The position numbers and the translations under genes were made by a program. Positions 1-39,983 of a DNA stretch of 39,983 bases are shown in pieces (the first letter of the stretch is position 1; every line of letters begins with the position of its first letter). The notes below the pieces were generated by a model that saw only the letters and a list, made by a program, of their open reading frames with translations, was not told the origin of the DNA and did not search any database. This DNA is from a virus (Duplodnaviria; Caudoviricetes). Location: positions 1 to 39,983 of IMG/VR virus record IMGVR_UViG_3300017911_002256, one strand, 5' to 3'.

Positions 1-1167
1 GATAATGAATGGCATTTAGTTGTATGTACTGTTTCAAGTTTCACCGCTGACGATGTTCAGCTTGGTAGAAATGCCTCATCATACGGTAATATAAGACTTG
101 CAAATGTTAAATTCAATGACGGTGTTTTAGCAGAATACCCACTAGCCGAGGGCAGCAGTTCAACTGTTTACGATGTTAGTGGTAACGCTAACCACGGAAC
201 GATGACTAATTTCACTCTCGCAAATGCATGGGGAACTACTCAAAACGTTTATCACTACAATATTAATAACGGGCACTCTTTTGCCGCTAAATTTGACGGA
301 TTGGATGACCGGGTTGATTTTACGAGTGGGTTATCTTTCGCTTCAGGAGATGATTACGTAATAAGCTATCATGCTTTAGGTTTATCATCGAATGTCATTA
401 TTTTTGGCGATAGCGCAGGGACAGACAACTTTGTTTTCCACCGAAACGACTATATCAGAGTTAATGTTAATGGAACGAATTACGACTCAAAAACTGGGCT
501 AGGTTACGACACCTATGTTAACCCCTTTGTCACTATCGAAAGATCGGGTGCTAATATTACATTTTCTGTTTACGACAAAGAAGGTGGGACACTTCAGGAC
601 TCTGATACGATTGCCTACGTTGGGAGTGCTTTTGACATTAATCGAATAGGTGCCAGAATTGTCGATGACTCGTTAAATTTTGATGCTGCGCTAATAAGAG
701 CAAAAATTTCGATCGAAGGGACAACAGAGATTGATTATTATTTCTCAGAAGGACAGGGCACTACAATCGCCGACGAGTCGGGAAATTCAAATGATGGCAC
801 AGCGGTAAACATAACCGAAAGTAGTTTTTGGAGTCATCGAATACCTGCAACAAGCTCGACGCTAGACGCACTTGAGAGGACGTTAAGTCACCCAGCAGGC
901 AACTACCATAACAAGGCCGAAACTACGTATGCTTGCCCAGAAGCTCCAGCCTTAAGAGTAGCAGACGCAGCTAAAACAACACCACGTCTTTACAGTGGAG
1001 CAAACCCAGTTGAATTAAGTTACGATGATTTTGAAGAAGATTTTGACGATGAAGGGTTTTATTTCTCGGACGTTTCAACAGCGAATGAGTATAAAAACTT
1101 ACTAATTTTCGATGAAGAAAAAACTGGATCGGACTTAACAGACATACAAACATTTTTAAACCACTAA
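1..1167 (+). CDS. 5'-truncated LamG/ConA-like virion (receptor-binding) protein; alternative allele of the 3' end of 37083..39974
   Basis: Frame is open from base 1 (DNEWHLVVCTVSS..., identical to residues in the 963-aa ORF). Contains the LamG-type repeat FDGLDDRVDF...YYFSEGQGTTIADESGNSNDGT. The C-terminus (...DLTDIQTFLNH) is identical to that of the 963-aa ORF. Confidence 0.8.
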   Translation, partial: DNEWHLVVCTVSSFTADDVQLGRNASSYGNIRLANVKFNDGVLAEYPLAEGSSSTVYDVSGNANHGTMTNFTLANAWGTTQNVYHYNINNGHSFAAKFDGLDDRVDFTSGLSFASGDDYVISYHALGLSSNVIIFGDSAGTDNFVFHRNDYIRVNVNGTNYDSKTGLGYDTYVNPFVTIERSGANITFSVYDKEGGTLQDSDTIAYVGSAFDINRIGARIVDDSLNFDAALIRAKISIEGTTEIDYYFSEGQGTTIADESGNSNDGTAVNITESSFWSHRIPATSSTLDALERTLSHPAGNYHNKAETTYACPEAPALRVADAAKTTPRLYSGANPVELSYDDFEEDFDDEGFYFSDVSTANEYKNLLIFDEEKTGSDLTDIQTFLNH

Positions 1168-1176
1168 GAGGTATAC
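1..1176 (+). repeat. Imperfect terminal direct repeat, copy A (pairs with 38802..39983)
   Basis: 1-59 = 38802-38860 exactly; 1037-1176 = 39844-39983 exactly (140 nt). Patchy, mostly synonymous divergence over 60-273 and ~880-1036; core ~274-837 is non-homologous. Confidence 0.95.
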
Positions 1177-1659
1177 ATGTTAGTTGAAATAAAAATAGAC
1201 ATTAACAAACTCAACCCACTCCACGCAGACTACGACAACACCTTGTTTGGACTGTGTCAACAAGCTGTAATAAGTGGAGCGACAACAACTTATAAAGACG
1301 GGTATGTTACTTACAAAATTTATTCAGCAAATCTTTCAATGGGGATTGCTCAATCAATTGTAGGGTTAGGAGCTGAAGTTAATAAAATGCCATTCTTTAT
1401 AAAGGTTAGCTCAACAAGTGCAAATGTACCTGTTGGAATTCCTAATAGAGAATACCAAAGTGAAGCTGGTGATCCAGTAGTTCATACCTGGGAGAGCTGG
1501 AAGCGTGATAACTTTGACTTTCACACTTTAACCGATGGAAACACCTATATTGCAGCGGAAGCAAATACTGGTGATGTTGTTAAGTTAAATGATTTCATGA
1601 GCGAAGCATCCAACCTAATCGACACAATGACTTTTAAAAGTCTTCAGCCTACTGAATAA
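1177..1659 (+). CDS. hypothetical protein (possibly tail-associated or a fibre chaperone)
   Basis: 160-aa ORF with an AAGAGG RBS directly after the LamG gene; no recognised motif. Confidence 0.6.
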   Translation: MLVEIKIDINKLNPLHADYDNTLFGLCQQAVISGATTTYKDGYVTYKIYSANLSMGIAQSIVGLGAEVNKMPFFIKVSSTSANVPVGIPNREYQSEAGDPVVHTWESWKRDNFDFHTLTDGNTYIAAEANTGDVVKLNDFMSEASNLIDTMTFKSLQPTE

Positions 1660-1925
1660 TGTTTAAGCATTATTGTGGGGCTGACTATTTTCCTAAATGG
1701 TTAAGGCGCTTATTGAGCTTCCCTCTAAACGAGGCTTGTCGGCTCCATGATAGATTCTACGAGAAGAAAAACTACTCTAAAGTTAAAGCAGATTTAATAT
1801 TCTTCCAGTGCTGCCTTAAATTATCTTTGCTAAACTTAATCAAAGGATTGATTGGTTTAGTGGTAACTCCTTTATATTTTTTGGCAGTCTTATTGTTTGG
1901 GAAAAGATCATGGAAGAACTATTAA
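1659..1925 (+). CDS. small PLA2-like/DUF1353-like protein with hydrophobic C-terminus
   Basis: YCG...ACRLHDRFY...ADLIF matches the secretory/parvoviral PLA2-type C-x-x-H-D-x-x-Y pattern; C-terminal hydrophobic stretch LIGLVVTPLYFLAVLLFG; TAATG coupling to the upstream gene. Confidence 0.55.
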   Translation: MFKHYCGADYFPKWLRRLLSFPLNEACRLHDRFYEKKNYSKVKADLIFFQCCLKLSLLNLIKGLIGLVVTPLYFLAVLLFGKRSWKNY

Positions 1926-2455
1926 TAATAACCCACCTAGCTTGCGTCTTTACAATTGTGTACCGGACTAAAAAAAAGACCTTCAATAAATCTTGCGGTG
2001 GATGTGTAAATTATGCGCCACACGGAGGTATAAGTAACCTTGATAGAATAGAAGAGTTAACAGAAATATTGCTTGAGGATTTCAGCTCTTTCAATAAAGA
2101 AGATCTTATTCAATTACTCGACCTCTCTACTAAGGGTTGGTGGTACTGGAATATCGAAACAGGTTACGACTATTTGTCTAAAGGTTGGTGTGAACAGCTT
2201 GGGTACTCACAACATGATCTTCCTCATCATGTTGATACATGGTTTGAAGTGATGCATCCTGAAGATAGGGACAAAGCTAGCCATGCAATGAATAAGCACT
2301 TATTAACAGGTGAACCGTATGAGTTAGTCGCTAGATATAAGCACAAAGATGGGCACTACGTCACTTTGAGGGATATCGGAAAAGTGATAAAATATAAGCA
2401 AGGAAAACCTTTTATCATGATCGGGCATGAAACGGAGATTGATAATGGAAGATAA
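1910..2455 (+). CDS. stand-alone PAS (PAS_3/PAC) domain protein with N-terminal hydrophobic anchor
   Basis: GWWYWNIETG..YLSKGWCEQLGY...WFEVMHPEDRD...PYELVARYKHKDGHYV...GKV...MIG is a typical PAS_3-PAC signature; no output domain follows. Confidence 0.85.
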   Translation: MEELLIITHLACVFTIVYRTKKKTFNKSCGGCVNYAPHGGISNLDRIEELTEILLEDFSSFNKEDLIQLLDLSTKGWWYWNIETGYDYLSKGWCEQLGYSQHDLPHHVDTWFEVMHPEDRDKASHAMNKHLLTGEPYELVARYKHKDGHYVTLRDIGKVIKYKQGKPFIMIGHETEIDNGR

Positions 2456-2651
2456 CTCATGGAAAGAGTGGAGCCGTTACGTGCTTGAGGAGCTTAAAAG
2501 ACTAAATAGCAAAATGGAAAATATGGAGAAAGAACTTCATGAAATCAAAGTTGAAGTTAACACACTTAAAACAAAAGCCGCTATGTGGGGAACACTTGCC
2601 GGCGTAGTTGTAACAGTCTTAGGATATATCCTAAGTTATCTACAAAAATAG
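2445..2651 (+). CDS. coiled-coil plus C-terminal TM protein (XhlA/holin-like)
   Basis: Heptad coiled coil followed by AAMWGTLAGVVVTVLGYILSYL; GGAG RBS before ATG 2445; located in the lysis region. Confidence 0.6.
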   Translation: MEDNSWKEWSRYVLEELKRLNSKMENMEKELHEIKVEVNTLKTKAAMWGTLAGVVVTVLGYILSYLQK

Positions 2652-2660
2652 GAGAGTAAA

Positions 2661-2855
2661 ATGGATTACAAAGATGAATTAAAAGCAATCGGGCTAGATG
2701 TAACTGAAAAGATCATCATTAAAGTTTTAATTCCTTTCTTAGAGCAGAAAGTTAAAGATTCAAGCAACGTAATTGATGATGCAATTCTTGAAGCACTTAA
2801 GCCTGCTTTAATTGAATTTGTCGATAAATTAGATGGCGAAGAAGATGTTAAATAA
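2661..2855 (+). CDS. small hypothetical lysis-region protein
   Basis: AGGAG RBS; 64 aa; the SSNVIDDAIL pattern resembles small phage proteins found near lysis genes. Confidence 0.55.
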   Translation: MDYKDELKAIGLDVTEKIIIKVLIPFLEQKVKDSSNVIDDAILEALKPALIEFVDKLDGEEDVK

Positions 2856-3033
2856 GATCATAGAGCTGCTTTCTAAGTGGCTCGTCATTCCTTTAATTAT
2901 GGAATGGATTAAGCAGTTCCAAGAAAAGAGACGCCTTAAAAAAGAACACAAAGAAATCGATAAGCAACACGCAAGGAAGCATGATGAGTTTAAAGACAAT
3001 CGCACTAAAGATACTTTTAATAATCTTCCTTAA
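2833..3033 (+). CDS. putative i-spanin (Rz-like)
   Basis: N-terminal hydrophobic segment followed by a charged coiled coil; overlaps a lipoprotein gene. Confidence 0.45.
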   Translation: MAKKMLNKIIELLSKWLVIPLIMEWIKQFQEKRRLKKEHKEIDKQHARKHDEFKDNRTKDTFNNLP

Positions 3034-3280
3034 TGGATGCCAGTCACCAGCTAAGAAACTAAAACTAGTAACTCTTCAATGTGCTATTGTTGTTGAAGAC
3101 GATGGTTCAGCAATTTGTATGTGCCGTGATTATAAATTTAGTTACGAGTACATTGGGGCAACATCAAAACCTTATCCCGAATCTATGGAGTTATGTGAAC
3201 AAATGGTTGGTTACCCAGAGTACGACAAAGTAAGTGCTTTTAATGAGAAAGTATGGAGAGCAATCAGAAATGCAAAATAA
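2981..3280 (+). CDS. lipoprotein, putative o-spanin (Rz1-like)
   Basis: Signal peptide with lipobox-like ILLIIFLNG-C; Cys-rich; overlaps the upstream gene and sits directly before the endolysin. Confidence 0.55.
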   Translation: MMSLKTIALKILLIIFLNGCQSPAKKLKLVTLQCAIVVEDDGSAICMCRDYKFSYEYIGATSKPYPESMELCEQMVGYPEYDKVSAFNEKVWRAIRNAK

Positions 3281-3698
3281 ACAACAGAGTTTAAGGTTCA
3301 AACACAAAAGAGATGAAGAGATGTTCTATAGCCTACACCCTTTATTATGCGGCATTGTTTTTGACATTGCTTATTTTTGCATTCCTTATAATTACACACC
3401 AACAGTTACTGCTACTTTATCCGATATTGAAAAGGATCGTGCCTTAGGAAGAAAGTCAAGTACTCACCGGGAAGGGAGAGCAGTTGACCTAAGAACTCGG
3501 GATATGCCCACTTTGTTAAGAAAAAACCTGATAGAATATTTAACAAAAAAATATGACTCTATTGCCGCCGCGAATAAGATTGGCTTAAAACGCCTAGTAG
3601 TCGATGAGGGAGACCATTTGCATATTCAGATCCATAAAAAATACGCAAAACCAGCATTTGTTAGCTTGTCCTGCGTATTTCCTAAAAGCCCTAAGTAG
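3270..3698 (+). CDS. endolysin, peptidase M15 family
   Basis: SSTHREGRAVDLR...DHLHIQ gives the H-x6-D and H-x-H zinc ligands of M15 peptidases; probable start is ATG 3270. Confidence 0.75.
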   Translation: MQNKQQSLRFKHKRDEEMFYSLHPLLCGIVFDIAYFCIPYNYTPTVTATLSDIEKDRALGRKSSTHREGRAVDLRTRDMPTLLRKNLIEYLTKKYDSIAAANKIGLKRLVVDEGDHLHIQIHKKYAKPAFVSLSCVFPKSPK

Positions 3699-3754
3699 GT
3701 TAAGATTAACCTATGCTTGCAAACGGATTTGCTTCATTTGTCAAAACTCCTTGT

Positions 3755-3782
3755 GGCGGTTTGCTTGAATGAGTAAACCGTC
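3755..3782 (+). other. RNA hairpin downstream of the lysis cassette (terminator or sRNA element)
   Basis: GGCGGTTTGCTT-GAAT-GAGTAAACCGTC; the stem needs G-U pairs, so it folds on the + strand; no U-tract follows. Confidence 0.45.
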
Positions 3783-3933
3783 CTCAAAAAAGAGTAACAA
3801 CAATACTACTCAATCTATCCAGCGTTTACAAGATCAATTAGTTTTAGCTCAGCATGAAGGCAACACAAAGAAAGCCAAGATGATTAAAATAATCATAAAG
3901 AGGTTGGAACACCTGAGAGATCATGGATGGTAA
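3769..3933 (+). CDS. small 54-aa basic protein absent from the ORF track
   Basis: MSKPSSKKSNNNTTQSIQRLQDQLVLAQHEGNTKKAKMIKIIIKRLEHLRDHGW*; fills the gap between convergent modules and overlaps the rusA 3' end by 41 nt. Confidence 0.4.
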   Translation: MSKPSSKKSNNNTTQSIQRLQDQLVLAQHEGNTKKAKMIKIIIKRLEHLRDHGW

Positions 3934-4848: not shown

Positions 4849-5067
4849 CTACTTTTTCGGAAAAGGTATCTCAAGACAGAAAACCATTCTTTCTTCAACA
4901 TCTTCTTCAGAAGTTACAAGTCTAACTTTAGCAAAGTGCTTGTAATGTCTTGTAGTACTTAGTGTGTATTCAATAAATGTGGCTTCTTCTTTAGGGTGAA
5001 CACCAAGCATTCTTTGACAATAAAACATTTGCTCCGGGGAAAGTTTACACTTATCCCCACGTTTCAT
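4849..5067 (-). CDS. hypothetical protein
   Basis: 72-aa ORF with an ATGA overlap with the upstream gene. Confidence 0.55.
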   Translation of the reverse strand: MKRGDKCKLSPEQMFYCQRMLGVHPKEEATFIEYTLSTTRHYKHFAKVRLVTSEEDVEERMVFCLEIPFPKK

Positions 5068-5633
5068 GCATCAACCCAACGGCATTTCTTGAAGATCCAC
5101 CAACCAGTACAGACTTTAACTTTCTGTGGTTTAGGTTGTGGGAAGAGATAATCATAGCACTTCTCATAAATCTCATTCATCTTATAGGGTACAGAATGTG
5201 ATCTTCTCTTAGTTCTTTTAAAGTCGTGTTTGTAACCTAACTTATGGGAGTATTCATGGAGAATGTTTGAGCCAATCAACTTAGTGGATCTCTTATCAAA
5301 ATATCTAGTGTTAACGAAGATTGTCTTTATACTCGGATAGGTATATCCGATAACTCTCTTCCTACTGAAGTAATCATCAACATAAATATCTAATTCATGA
5401 TCAACTTCGGGGCTTAGAGTTTCAGATCCTCTCATAAACCTTTGATATATCTGCTCAGGTATATCTGTTTTAAAAGCACTAGTCTCACCATGGATGCTTC
5501 CGATGTTGAGTACAGCTTGGCGGAACACATCAGAGTTTATAATCTCTTCCATCTCCTCTCGAACTATATTCAACTTATCTAGTCGGAAATTTGATTCAAT
5601 TTTGGATGCGTCTATTTTGACCTTTATTCTCAT
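5064..5633 (-). CDS. HExxH zinc-metallopeptidase-like protein
   Basis: VIGYTYP...NILHEYSHKLGYKH (HExxHxxGxxH metzincin-type motif)...SVPY. Confidence 0.65.
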   Translation of the reverse strand: MRIKVKIDASKIESNFRLDKLNIVREEMEEIINSDVFRQAVLNIGSIHGETSAFKTDIPEQIYQRFMRGSETLSPEVDHELDIYVDDYFSRKRVIGYTYPSIKTIFVNTRYFDKRSTKLIGSNILHEYSHKLGYKHDFKRTKRRSHSVPYKMNEIYEKCYDYLFPQPKPQKVKVCTGWWIFKKCRWVDA

Positions 5634-5717: not shown

Positions 5718-6074
5718 ATGTATCTTCAATCTCTGACCATTAAGGGCAAGAAATACAAAGTTTACAGGAAGGACATCGAGGGTCACGTTCTCGGCTACTG
5801 TGATAAATACTCCAAGAAAATAGTCATCAATAAATTAACACCGCAAGATAAGATAGTAACAACTTTGGCTCATGAGATGGCACACGCTTATATCCATGAA
5901 TGCTACTTAGATCAAACCTTAGACGCTACTCAAGAAGAAATCATCTGTGAAATAGTGGCGGACTTAGTTGAAAACTATGTTGATTTCCTATCTGATCTTA
6001 AGACTATGGCGGATGAGGAGCCTCATGAAAATAAAGACAGCATTGTTGCTCGGAGATATACACTTCGACGCTGA
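5718..6074 (+). CDS. small HExxH metallopeptidase (ImmA/IrrE/SprT-like zincin)
   Basis: LGYCD...IVIN...TTLAHEMAHA...EEIICE; AAAAGGA RBS. Confidence 0.7.
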   Translation: MYLQSLTIKGKKYKVYRKDIEGHVLGYCDKYSKKIVINKLTPQDKIVTTLAHEMAHAYIHECYLDQTLDATQEEIICEIVADLVENYVDFLSDLKTMADEEPHENKDSIVARRYTLRR

Positions 6075-6774
6075 AGATAAGAACCTTTTAAAGAAGACAT
6101 TTGAAATAGCTAAAGCGGAAAAGGTAGAACATATCTACTTTCTCGGGGATGTGTTAGACGCCTATGCGTTGAGTAGTCATGAAAAGCACCCTAATATTAA
6201 GACAACATTTCAATATGAGATCGACTACACTAAAGAGCAGTTTAGTAAGCTAAGAAAAATGTTCCCTAAGGCGAAGATTACCATCATATTCGGCAACCAT
6301 TGTGCCAGAATTTATAAATATATGGTGAAGAATTGTCCTGAGCTTTATGGTTTCCTTCGTATTGAAGAGTTATTAGAGCTTAAAGAGTTCGGTATTAAAT
6401 GGGTGCCTTTTAACAACAAGCAAGGTGTGGAGATACTGAACACTGATTTGATCGGTCGTCATGTTCCGTACTCCCAAGGACAGAATCATGCACAAGCTTC
6501 CCTAAGAAAAGGGTTACATAGTCTAGTATATGCACACGTTCACACCTATTCTTATGCAATACATGTTAAAAGAAATGGTGAATTGTTAAGAAGTTTCTGT
6601 AACATGTGCTTAGTAGATGTAAACAATCCTAAGTTCAATTACGTAAGTAACTTTCCGAATTGGGTTCAAGGTTTCACATTGATCCACGCCGATAGGAATG
6701 GATCATGGTTTGATGAGAAAGCTATGGTGGTTGACGGTCACTTAAGGTTTAGAAATAAAGCTATAAAGATTTAG
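6025..6774 (+). CDS. calcineurin-like metallophosphoesterase
   Basis: GDIH, GDVLD, GNH, H and AHVH motifs; GAGGAG RBS before ATG 6025. Confidence 0.85.
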   Translation: MKIKTALLLGDIHFDAEDKNLLKKTFEIAKAEKVEHIYFLGDVLDAYALSSHEKHPNIKTTFQYEIDYTKEQFSKLRKMFPKAKITIIFGNHCARIYKYMVKNCPELYGFLRIEELLELKEFGIKWVPFNNKQGVEILNTDLIGRHVPYSQGQNHAQASLRKGLHSLVYAHVHTYSYAIHVKRNGELLRSFCNMCLVDVNNPKFNYVSNFPNWVQGFTLIHADRNGSWFDEKAMVVDGHLRFRNKAIKI

Positions 6775-37082: not shown

Positions 37083-39974
37083 ATGGGTTTCATAATTGCA
37101 AACGCCATAAGCGTTGTAAAAACTTTTATAGCTGGAGTTAGTCGCTCAAGCATACTTGCGCTTAGCGGGCTTATTGCTTTCATATTTGATGCGGAAGAAG
37201 GCGTAAGTAGTACTTATGTTGGTGATGCCGCTGGGGATGACCGAACAAGTGGACGAGAGATTCAACCAGGTCGATGCTATGATTTTGACGGGACGAATGA
37301 TTATGTGAATATTGGAGCTATTTCAGCCATTGAAACAGCAGACTTCAGCATAAAATTACGAGTAAAAAACACGGAAACTAACGAAGGTCACTTTTTTTCT
37401 TTAGGTACAGGTGGTTCAGATGGTACATTTCTTCTTAGAAAGCTCGGTTCAGGTGTTGTAAATTGCGCTATATTCTTAAATGGTACCTCAGCTTCGGTGG
37501 GATCCACAACTGTCGTAAACGATGGTGCTTGGCATACAATAGCAGTCTCCGTTGATCGAGATGGCAATTTAACTTTAAATATAAATGATGGTGCTGAGAT
37601 TGCCTCAACAAGCATTTCAAGCTTAAACGGTTTTAGTCTTAACAATGGCAATGGCTGGGCTATAGGCTGCGAAAGAGCGGGTGCCCCAACTCAATTTTAT
37701 GATGGAATAATTCAATACTTAGAAGTCCGAGAAGGAGCAACAATAGACTCTGGAAATTATGTTGCTCTTTACAAAATGGAAGAATCCGCAGGAGCTATAG
37801 CTTACGACTCAAGCGGTAACGCTAATCACGGCACAATAACAAATGCGACACTTTCAACATTTCATGCAACGGATACGGGCGTAACCAAGTCTTATTCAAA
37901 TGATGTTGGATATAATGATGGAAATAATAACTTTCCTGTTTCTTCGGTTACTAGCCCAGGCTGGGTAAATCAACTTACGGGGCTAAGTTTGGTCGATTTC
38001 AAGTCATCTGGTAACTTCGCTTTGCGTTTTACTAACACCGATTTAACAAATGCAGTTCACAGGTCGTATAATATTACAAATATTGTAAATTTTGAGCAAG
38101 ATGATTGGCTTATTGTTTATGCAAAAAACAATGGGTCCCGTTACTTCTCTTATCGTATCACCGGCGGCGGGGTTGCGACTTACGATTTTACAACTGAATC
38201 TTTTTCAACTTTAACCGGGTTTGCCAATCAATCAATCGAAGTCAATGGGGATTGGCACAAACTTACACTTCAGCACAACCAAAGCTTCAGTAACCCAATA
38301 GTCCAGTTTGCCCATTCAGGGACAACTGCATTAACAAGACCAGATATAGCGCACACACCTGATAGTATAACAACAAGTATTGATTTTTTTATAGGCGTAT
38401 TGAAGGAAAACTCAGGTCAAATTGTCCCAACTTTTGGAAGTCAGGTTGTGAATAAGCTAATTCCCAGAAATGAAAGTGATACGGATAACGATATTCTCGG
38501 GAATAATCTAGATTACAGCGGTCGAGTGAAATATGATTTTGATTTAAAATCTTCTAACTGCCTTACGTTTGATGGAGTAGACGATTACGTCGATTGCGGT
38601 GACTTAGGCTCGGTAACGGAAGTAAGTTTTTATATTCAATCGGTTATCGATAATCAAGAAATTTTAACTTTAGATGGAGCTAATTCTGGTCGCATATATG
38701 TTACCGGGGGCGTATTATCTTTTGGTGGGTCACTCACCTCGACGGCTATAACAGTTGATGGTGTTTCGAAGACAGCAAGTGAAGCAGGTGCTTTAATAAA
38801 TGATAATGAATGGCATTTAGTTGTATGTACTGTTTCAAGTTTCACCGCTGACGATGTTCAATTAGGCAGAAATGCTTCGAGTTATGGAAACATCAGGCTT
38901 GCAAATGTTAAATTCAATGACGGTGTTTTAGCAGAATACCCACTAGCCGAAGGTGGTGGCTCAACAGTTTACGACGTTAGCGGAAACGCTAACCACGGAA
39001 CGATGACTAACTTTACGCTTTCAAATGCTTGGGGAACGACTCAAGATGTTTTTCATCACAACATCAATAACGGGTTCACTCAAGGCAAAAACTTTTTTTC
39101 TAACTCTGAAGATCTAAGTCATCCTGACTGGGCGGGATTCAGACTAACTAAAGTACTTGGGAGCGCAGTTGAAGGAATTACTTTAACTAATTTAGAAGCA
39201 AGTGAAACGAATCCAAACGGCTCCGCAACGTTACAAACTTTAAGTTCTCAAGCATCAGGAATGTACACATTTTCTTGTTATGCTAAAGCTAGCGATTCAA
39301 ATTTTGTTTTGTTAAGACCGAGTAATAATGCAAGTTTTGTTGATCGAGTGCAAACTTGGTTTAACCTGTCGACTGGCACAGTTGGTGCCTCTTCTTCCCC
39401 GGGTTCAAGTTTTACGCTTGATAGCACAAGTATCGAACTAATAGGAAGCGACTTATATCGATGCTCAATAACTTTCACGACATCAACTTTATTAGATATT
39501 TCAGCAAGAATTTACCTCACAACCGGTAATAACTCTAACAGCGTTACCATTGGTGATAGTGTAGATGTTGGTGGTATCCAATTTGAAAATGGAGAGCTAA
39601 GTGCTTATCAAAAAACAACTGACATAGCGTTAAACGGTATTAAATTGCCCGTACTTTCAACCGGAAACGACGATGTTTTAAACCTTGGGATTTCAAATCC
39701 ATCTGGAGCTTTCCACAACAACGCTGAAACTATGTATGCTGCACCAGAAGCTCCAGCTCTTAGAGTGGCAGATGACGCAAAACCAACAGCACGTCTTTAT
39801 AGCGGAGCAAACCCAGTTGAACTTGGTTACGATGATTTCGAAAAAGATTTTGACGATGAAGGGTTTTATTTCTCGGACGTTTCAACAGCGAATGAGTATA
39901 AAAACTTACTAATTTTCGATGAAGAAAAAACTGGATCGGACTTAACAGACATACAAACATTTTTAAACCACTAA
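37083..39974 (+). CDS. large LamG/ConA-like repeat virion protein (head fibre or receptor-binding)
   Basis: Two FDG.[ND]DYV...WH...E..G...YD.SGNANHGT LamG repeats alternating with other beta-rich modules. Confidence 0.85.
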   Translation: MGFIIANAISVVKTFIAGVSRSSILALSGLIAFIFDAEEGVSSTYVGDAAGDDRTSGREIQPGRCYDFDGTNDYVNIGAISAIETADFSIKLRVKNTETNEGHFFSLGTGGSDGTFLLRKLGSGVVNCAIFLNGTSASVGSTTVVNDGAWHTIAVSVDRDGNLTLNINDGAEIASTSISSLNGFSLNNGNGWAIGCERAGAPTQFYDGIIQYLEVREGATIDSGNYVALYKMEESAGAIAYDSSGNANHGTITNATLSTFHATDTGVTKSYSNDVGYNDGNNNFPVSSVTSPGWVNQLTGLSLVDFKSSGNFALRFTNTDLTNAVHRSYNITNIVNFEQDDWLIVYAKNNGSRYFSYRITGGGVATYDFTTESFSTLTGFANQSIEVNGDWHKLTLQHNQSFSNPIVQFAHSGTTALTRPDIAHTPDSITTSIDFFIGVLKENSGQIVPTFGSQVVNKLIPRNESDTDNDILGNNLDYSGRVKYDFDLKSSNCLTFDGVDDYVDCGDLGSVTEVSFYIQSVIDNQEILTLDGANSGRIYVTGGVLSFGGSLTSTAITVDGVSKTASEAGALINDNEWHLVVCTVSSFTADDVQLGRNASSYGNIRLANVKFNDGVLAEYPLAEGGGSTVYDVSGNANHGTMTNFTLSNAWGTTQDVFHHNINNGFTQGKNFFSNSEDLSHPDWAGFRLTKVLGSAVEGITLTNLEASETNPNGSATLQTLSSQASGMYTFSCYAKASDSNFVLLRPSNNASFVDRVQTWFNLSTGTVGASSSPGSSFTLDSTSIELIGSDLYRCSITFTTSTLLDISARIYLTTGNNSNSVTIGDSVDVGGIQFENGELSAYQKTTDIALNGIKLPVLSTGNDDVLNLGISNPSGAFHNNAETMYAAPEAPALRVADDAKPTARLYSGANPVELGYDDFEKDFDDEGFYFSDVSTANEYKNLLIFDEEKTGSDLTDIQTFLNH

Positions 39975-39983
39975 GAGGTATAC
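38802..39983 (+). repeat. Imperfect terminal direct repeat, copy B (pairs with 1..1176)
   Basis: See copy A; the window ends exactly at AAGAGGTATAC, the base before the ATG of gene 1177. Confidence 0.95.

Follow-up and report, generated by a model that had tools for sequence, protein, structure and literature searches.

A two-gene phage module that pairs a shared helix carrying interchangeable domains with a small membrane protein

The window, by which we mean the whole 39,983-bp stretch of DNA analysed, is a near-complete phage record encoding a GP7 capsid protein, Bbp16/Bbp19, a family A polymerase and tail genes (Pfam and PHROGs). Its major capsid protein is 59% identical to that of phiV10-like podophages, and a seawater metagenome contig of 38,831 bp (run X1) shows 0 differences from it over positions 1100-3800. 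At the end of the late operon, with a tail-fibre-like gene upstream and oppositely oriented genes downstream, lies an open reading frame for a PAS protein, which we call gene A. The open reading frame that follows it is gene B. The locus comprises the following features.

1659..1925, + strand: small hydrophobic protein with a C-x-x-H-D-x-x-Y pattern, phospholipase A2 (PLA2)-like by eye; matches phrog_6098 (no annotated function)
1910..2455, + strand: gene A, 181 aa, with an optional hydrophobic N-terminus, the module helix and a PAS_3 domain, and no output domain
1919..1963, + strand: marginal hydrophobic segment (residues 4-18 of gene A), followed by a basic patch; lineage-specific, absent in P0003 and L193
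2033..2071, + strand: module helix (residues 42-54 of gene A), common to cupin, GAF, other PAS and helix-only partners; predicted docking element
2117..2437, + strand: PAS_3/PAC core (residues 70-176 of gene A), without the FixL-type heme His, LOV Cys or F-alpha Trp
2445..2651, + strand: gene B, 68 aa from the ATG at 2445, with a conserved N-terminal helix, a coiled coil and a C-terminal transmembrane (TM) segment at residues 50-66
2661..3280, + strand: three small open reading frames, 2661-2855 (phrog_402, no annotated function), 2833-3033 and 2981-3280
3234..3698, + strand: candidate zinc (M15/LAS-type) endolysin

A promoter and terminator scan gave counts not above those of shuffled sequences. 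Three observations elsewhere in the record deserve mention. The window ends, 1-1176 and 38802-39983, are homologous but not identical (1-273 versus 38802-39074 at 86%, 906-1176 versus 39713-39983 at 92%, with a diverged middle), a pattern suggestive of a circular overlap in which a variable tail-fibre gene is represented by two alleles. On the minus strand, 5064-5633 encodes a zinc-metallopeptidase-like protein with weak M35/SprT matches. A small plus-strand island at 5718-6774, with genes for an HExxH protein and a metallophosphoesterase, sits within a minus-strand region.

A preliminary description of this DNA presented gene A as an output-less PAS_3 protein overlapping both of its neighbours, and on both counts it was right. 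The sole Pfam match is PAS_3 (PF08447, residues 88-172, E 1.5e-22, 80.1 bits against a curated cut-off of 25.6), and the protein ends only 9 residues beyond it. Pfam searches found no kinase, GGDEF, HTH or other output domain, and NCBIfam matches are confined to the PAS region. Gene A shares 16 nt with 1659-1925 and 11 nt with 2445-2651. Its AlphaFold2 (AF2) model adopts a PAS fold (mean pLDDT 86.8), with two helices ahead of the PAS core. The closest solved relative in both structure (Foldseek E 1.8e-9) and sequence (profile match E 1.4e-23) is 3mr0, the PAS_3 domain of a Burkholderia thailandensis sensory box kinase. Unlike gene A, 3mr0 comes from a multi-domain kinase, and it has neither the module helix nor an accompanying gene B.

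We searched the gene A PAS domain for known cofactor determinants. As set out in the excerpted part of PMC10468136, LOV domains have a conserved flavin-binding Cys, and the FAD-binding PAS domains of NifL and Aer have a conserved Trp on F-alpha. Gene A has no Cys in its E-alpha region (residues 108-117) and no Trp in F-alpha (residues 117-133). The F-alpha heme His of FixL and DosP is likewise missing, its position, mapped via the L169 partner to DosP and 10jx, being A123/S124; H125, which lies near the heme-ligand position, is not conserved. With these residues missing, we rejected heme, FAD and LOV-type binding, and for the same reason the domain may serve for dimerization only. Among other partners of gene B, the PAS domain at L169 retains the FixL/DosP heme His, as does that at L030 by alignment.

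The preliminary description also remarked on a hydrophobic N-terminus, a basic patch and a CGGC motif, and made the protein membrane-anchored. All three are present in the sequence, and none proved to be conserved. The hydrophobic stretch is marginal, with a Kyte-Doolittle value of 1.81 over 17 aa. We compared 72 solo homologues of at most 200 aa, drawn from the best 77 of 97 PAS matches (the 20 lowest-ranked, mostly multi-domain, were excluded); an N-terminal TM segment occurs in four of the 72, and CxxC in one, the window protein itself. In the close relative L193, where the genes follow one another as in the window, the PAS gene has no TM segment. A membrane anchor and CGGC are thus not borne out as parts of the system, and CGGC was rejected as a redox switch on the same 1/72 count. 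Nor is a link of the PAS gene to the PLA2-like gene, which also gives a weak PHROGs match to a tail assembly chaperone (E 8e-3), supported: in L005 and L006 the PLA2-like gene is relocated behind gene B, with PAS-B adjacency preserved. We place it outside the module because its position varies, although it is kept in the clade.

Gene B has the dimensions of a holin, at 68 aa with a hydrophobic segment at residues 50-66 by hydropathy prediction. Its N-terminal helix carries the motif W-x-E-[WY]-S-[KR]-x-V-L-x-E-L-x-R-L, whose invariance was partly imposed by our search patterns. Profile searches of 47 members gave no consistent Pfam family and only phrog_1103 (no annotated function), in five of them; matches to XhlA (PF10779) or any other holin family in Pfam numbered 0/47 at E 1e-3. 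PDB sequences returned generic coiled coils only. The window protein has weak PHROG hemolysin matches (E ~1e-3), and nearly all of its Atlas look-alikes are viral clusters without a name, one neighbour cluster having 13% XhlA members. XhlA proteins combine a coiled coil with a C-terminal TM segment. Because of this XhlA-like layout, the hemolysin matches, the Atlas cluster, the endolysin matches near 6/44 loci and the candidate endolysin directly behind gene B in L193 (both below), we consider gene B likely to be a holin or holin accessory, with a putative N-in topology.

Gene A and gene B travel together. Scanning viral contigs with the PAS alignment alone recovered 33 loci, largely of one T4-like lineage, and gene B lies directly downstream in 31 of the 33. 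The same holds in the close relatives L005/L006 and L193. Two scans with gene B alignments confirmed 109 and 173 matches, and the best 80 of each were fetched; across all loci examined, including these, gene B is present in 185 of 188. Clustering reduces them to 106 representatives at a 90% identity level, and to 60 clusters when the level is 60%. In genome contigs, the gene B scan found two loci, both on phage-like contigs inside metagenome-assembled genomes (MAGs).

What the partners of gene B share is a short helix with the consensus S-N-L-x-x-L-R/K-E-L-T-x-x-L, which the AF2 model of gene A places at residues 43-57 with a pLDDT of about 60-67. To avoid circularity, we built the helix profile solely from 10 PAS_3-clade sequences and scored it on 90 gene B loci from outside that clade, 12 of which had no called upstream gene. 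In this hold-out, with a threshold of 17 chosen after seeing the background (99th percentile 17.7), the helix was found in 45/78 upstream neighbours of gene B versus 11/791 other genes, and in 4/65 downstream neighbours. Restricting the comparison to one locus per 60% cluster left 25/49 upstream neighbours against 10/352 small genes (Fisher p 1.7e-18). The helix is not a generic pre-PAS linker, as only seven of 234 segments preceding PAS motifs in multi-domain proteins reach the threshold. When family profiles of the PAS and cupin partners are compared, the alignment is confined to the N-terminal part that contains the helix (hhalign probability 82.7). A reciprocal scan with a C-terminal cupin motif yielded 13 loci, eight of them new (seven distinct), and a diverged B-like gene adjoins five of the seven. 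The conserved unit is two genes, a helix with a swappable domain beside gene B. The preliminary description missed this unit, although the tight coupling of the PAS gene to the downstream membrane gene stands.

We assigned partner classes by hand for the 106 gene B representatives. They comprise 16 PAS_3-clade proteins, 13 with other Pfam PAS domains, nine PAS-like proteins without a Pfam match, 16 cupins, one GAF protein, 18 with the helix only and 33 with no or an unclear partner. A partner is present in 39 of the 60 gene B clusters, and a single 60% cluster contains PAS, cupin, helix-only and partnerless loci. The helix of the GAF member precedes the first standard start but is within the same open frame. 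The cupin partners have an H-x-H-x3-E...H metal site that is invariant in 14/14. Sensing is dispensable, since 33/106 loci have no recognizable partner and a further 18 have a helix without a sensor. We have thus shown a pair of genes, both under purifying selection (dN/dS values below), in which the helix is shared and the attached domain can be PAS, cupin or GAF, or be missing altogether.

Several loci have unusual layouts. At L012:4899-5808, tandem helix-PAS genes that have diverged from each other precede a single gene B, and in L016-L021 and L131 the helix-PAS proteins carry an insertion of ~38-50 residues in the N-terminal strands of the PAS domain and are under purifying selection. Long partners occur at L132:2779-3972 (397 aa, helix and multiple PAS domains) and L177:4228-5097 (289 aa, helix and unrecognized domains), neither with an output domain. 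Behind the mini-PAS/B pair (113-aa partner) of L140, L150 and L157 lie genes encoding type IV pilin-like N-terminal methylation sequences. On a phage-like contig in a Woesebacteria MAG, the helix-only/B pair is directly preceded by a gene for ribosomal protein S21 (L194:1952-2188).

We found no module carrier among 50,697 GenBank phages by tblastn with window A, window B, L045 B, L172 B, the L008 PAS protein and the L133 cupin. The sole match was to a chromosome-like GGDEF gene lying in host-type DNA of the Pseudomonas phage Y10 record and was rejected, as was L002, a false match. The Y10 stretch (L003, OQ572411.1:20621-30989) holds host-type phosphotransferase, GGDEF and, by eye, lgt-like genes, and the record is probably contaminated with host DNA. 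In an unrelated 40.5-kb phage (L001:5872-6569), a solo PAS gene overlaps, by ATGA, a gene for a coiled-coil protein with a C-terminal TM segment, and genes for membrane proteins follow. We did not count this locus as a module because the downstream protein is not recognizably gene B (hhalign probability 19.6); its layout is the same as that of the A-B pair, possibly by convergence.

The preliminary description set gene A in a lysis cassette. Behind the pair, the small hydrophobic and lipoprotein-like open reading frames of 2661-3280 are candidates for spanin-like proteins, and 2981-3280 has a lipobox-like LNGC by eye. The candidate endolysin (3300-3698) has an H-x6-D plus H-x-H pattern, invariant in 3/3 aligned homologues, which is the pattern of M15/LAS zinc ligands. 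Its fold comparison gave middling matches to the endolysins Ply500 (Z 5.4, rmsd 3.8, 98 aligned, tied with unrelated folds) and LysB4 (Z 5.1), and searches returned no profile match and no PDB sequence or Foldseek match. A homologue lies directly behind gene B in L193 and L022. Across the open reading frames of 1659-3698, Pfam and NCBIfam gave no named lysis family, and the only named PHROGs matches were the weak ones to hemolysin and tail assembly chaperone.

To survey the setting more widely, we tallied neighbours by hand at 44 partnered loci, scanning one to five genes at each with PHROG searches of low sensitivity. Endolysin matches fall within three genes at six of the 44 (five cupin-type, one PAS). 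At 12 loci, twice the endolysin count, the closest neighbour with a name is a head, portal, terminase or tail gene. The remaining loci have no match or DNA-metabolism neighbours. Most homologous PAS loci come from T4-like large phages and are located there between portal and prohead protease. The module thus belongs mainly to the late region, and only a minority of loci place it in a lysis block. The lysis setting proposed earlier is plausible for the window and supported in part, by the candidate endolysin that follows the pair in the window and L193 and by the endolysin matches at 6/44 loci; the scarcity of lysis blocks among the loci weakens it.

We tentatively favour, at somewhat less than an even chance, a reading in which gene A docks on a holin-like or holin-accessory gene B and modulates it, much as a cytoplasmic antiholin with a swappable sensor would. 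Gene B, inserted in the inner membrane, would expose its N-terminal helix to the cytoplasm and act as a holin or holin accessory. The amphipathic helix of gene A would pack on the conserved helix of gene B and hold or release it, and the fused PAS domain, on binding a ligand, would alter the availability of the helix and so tune lysis timing to an intracellular signal. Helix-only partners would then be constitutive regulators, and sensor-bearing partners signal-gated versions repeatedly recruited from host signalling proteins. We infer the A-B binding, the holin-like role of B and the ligand sensing from sequence and context; a 1:1 complex prediction (A residues 37-181 with B residues 1-47) was uninformative, scoring 0.00 with controls that did not fold.

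The placement of some loci might instead point to a function in virion assembly, with B serving as a membrane tether or chaperone for prohead, portal or tail, A regulating or stabilizing it, and sensing acting on morphogenesis. Gene B lies between terminase and portal in L033, L038, L054 and L173, between portal and prohead protease in the L008 lineage, or beside capsid, neck and tail genes, in keeping with the head- or tail-type neighbours at 12/44 partnered loci. We nevertheless judge this unlikely. The position of B varies (tail end, lysis block, beside primase or ligase), the podo-, Mu-like and T4-like phages that carry it have unrelated assembly pathways, and holin genes are often scattered across late operons.

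Since placement is not lysis-specific, the pair might instead act on the host or on superinfecting phages, B inserting in the inner membrane to block superinfection or a host membrane complex and A gating B or decoying host PAS kinases by heterodimerizing with them. The PAS core does belong to a common kinase/GGDEF subtype, with 24-38% identity to 149 multi-domain proteins and a best core identity of 43% among the nearest multi-domain PAS domains. Cupin, GAF and helix-only versions, however, would be incapable of a PAS-kinase decoy role, and the conserved element is the helix beside B rather than a PAS surface, so we regard this reading, too, as improbable.

The 18 helix-only partners, which are under purifying selection, and the window PAS domain without a known cofactor motif would suit a constitutive toxin/inhibitor-like or holin/antiholin pair, in which the helix alone is functional and the fused domains provide solubility or dimerization, with no sensing. 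Against this stand the recruitment of three unrelated ligand-binding folds, the conservation of the PAS cores, the invariant cupin metal site and the heme His kept in L169 (and, by alignment, L030). We hold a constitutive pair to be decidedly unlikely.

We also considered the age and origin of gene A. Synonymous sites are saturated between gene A and its counterparts in L005 (51% protein identity) and L193 (47%), and in closer pairs dN/dS is 0.06-0.34 for PAS, 0.03-0.25 for B and 0.09-0.13 for helix-only partners. A quick PAS tree of 65 rows, which left out L193, P0216 and 7/45 bacterial rows lacking the anchor motif, groups the window protein in a clade of six rows, including P0201, on a long stem (1.08 changes per column, SH-aLRT 99). 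Because this clade does not join the PAS domains of T4-like phages, separate capture of the two would fit the tree, without being proved by it; a single origin of both is not supported. P0201 itself (271 aa, on a 38,297-bp contig) combines an ETR1_N ethylene-receptor-type membrane domain (E 1e-18) with a window-clade PAS and has no output domain. Saturated synonymous sites in a conserved protein, together with low dN/dS, mark gene A as an old gene maintained by purifying selection. The preliminary description had raised, against its own reading, the possibility of a host kinase fragment that was captured recently and is decaying, and homology to bacterial multi-PAS kinases might suggest one. 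This is contradicted by these values, the intact frame, the long-stemmed six-protein clade and the conserved adjacency to B, and is extremely improbable.

The reading in which gene A docks on a holin-like gene B has partial parallels in known systems, one of them VqmA, a PAS-HTH protein. In the excerpt of PMC8284805 used here, VqmA-Phage of vibriophage VP882 is a phage-encoded sensor that influences the lysis decision. It is a transcription factor with a DNA-binding output, whereas gene A has no output domain and a membrane protein as its partner. The T4 holin T, according to the cited part of PMC11413866, has a cytoplasmic antiholin, RIII, and a periplasmic one, RI, that senses superinfection. 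T and B are alike as single-TM proteins whose N-terminal cytoplasmic part is bound by a small cytoplasmic regulator, with lysis timing responding to a signal (a binding and a response that we predict for A and B). The C-terminal domain of T, as presented there, is periplasmic, B has nothing beyond its TM segment, and we found no sequence relation; where RI senses superinfection, the partner of B carries a swappable cytoplasmic PAS, GAF or cupin domain. The small membrane protein XhlA of Bacillus subtilis PBSX works together with a holin and an endolysin (excerpt of PMC5589764) and resembles B in its late or lysis-region setting and its coiled coil with a C-terminal TM segment; PF10779 is matched by 0/47 B members, the W-x-E-[WY]-S motif is particular to B, and that excerpt describes no sensor partner for XhlA. 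LysF1a and LysF1b of mycobacteriophages form a two-component holin-like pair that sets lysis timing (excerpt of PMC13056207). They too are two small adjacent proteins, one with a single TM segment; unlike A and B, both are membrane proteins, the TM segment of LysF1b is N-terminal, and the cited text mentions no sensor domain. By the tests run, the A-B pair belongs to neither the T4 T/RIII nor the XhlA family.

The module is widespread among phages, and its anatomy is well supported. We found no description of it in the open-access literature searched, and it is real, conserved and apparently undescribed in print. In a broader version of our favoured reading, one docking helix would couple any captured host sensor fold directly to a holin-like B, so that a cue (metabolite, metal, gas or redox) would gate lysis post-translationally, with no need for transcription, in uncultured phages from ~39-kb podophages to >200-kb T4-like phages. 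We think this generalization somewhat unlikely; its folds would include several PAS classes, heme-PAS among them, metal-binding cupins and GAF, and possibly the ethylene-receptor-type membrane domain.

To our knowledge, phages are known to sense host state through transcription factors of the VqmA type or antiholins that detect superinfection. Whether or not B is a holin, it calls for explanation that three sensor folds have been recruited repeatedly onto a single helix, and the module offers small soluble proteins, together with a defined partner, for tests in E. coli. If the proposed mechanism is true, it would represent a new design, in which interchangeable ligand-binding domains act on one membrane protein via a 13-residue helix to gate a late membrane event directly by signal, and it would give a role to many 'PAS domain protein' and cupin genes of uncultured phages.
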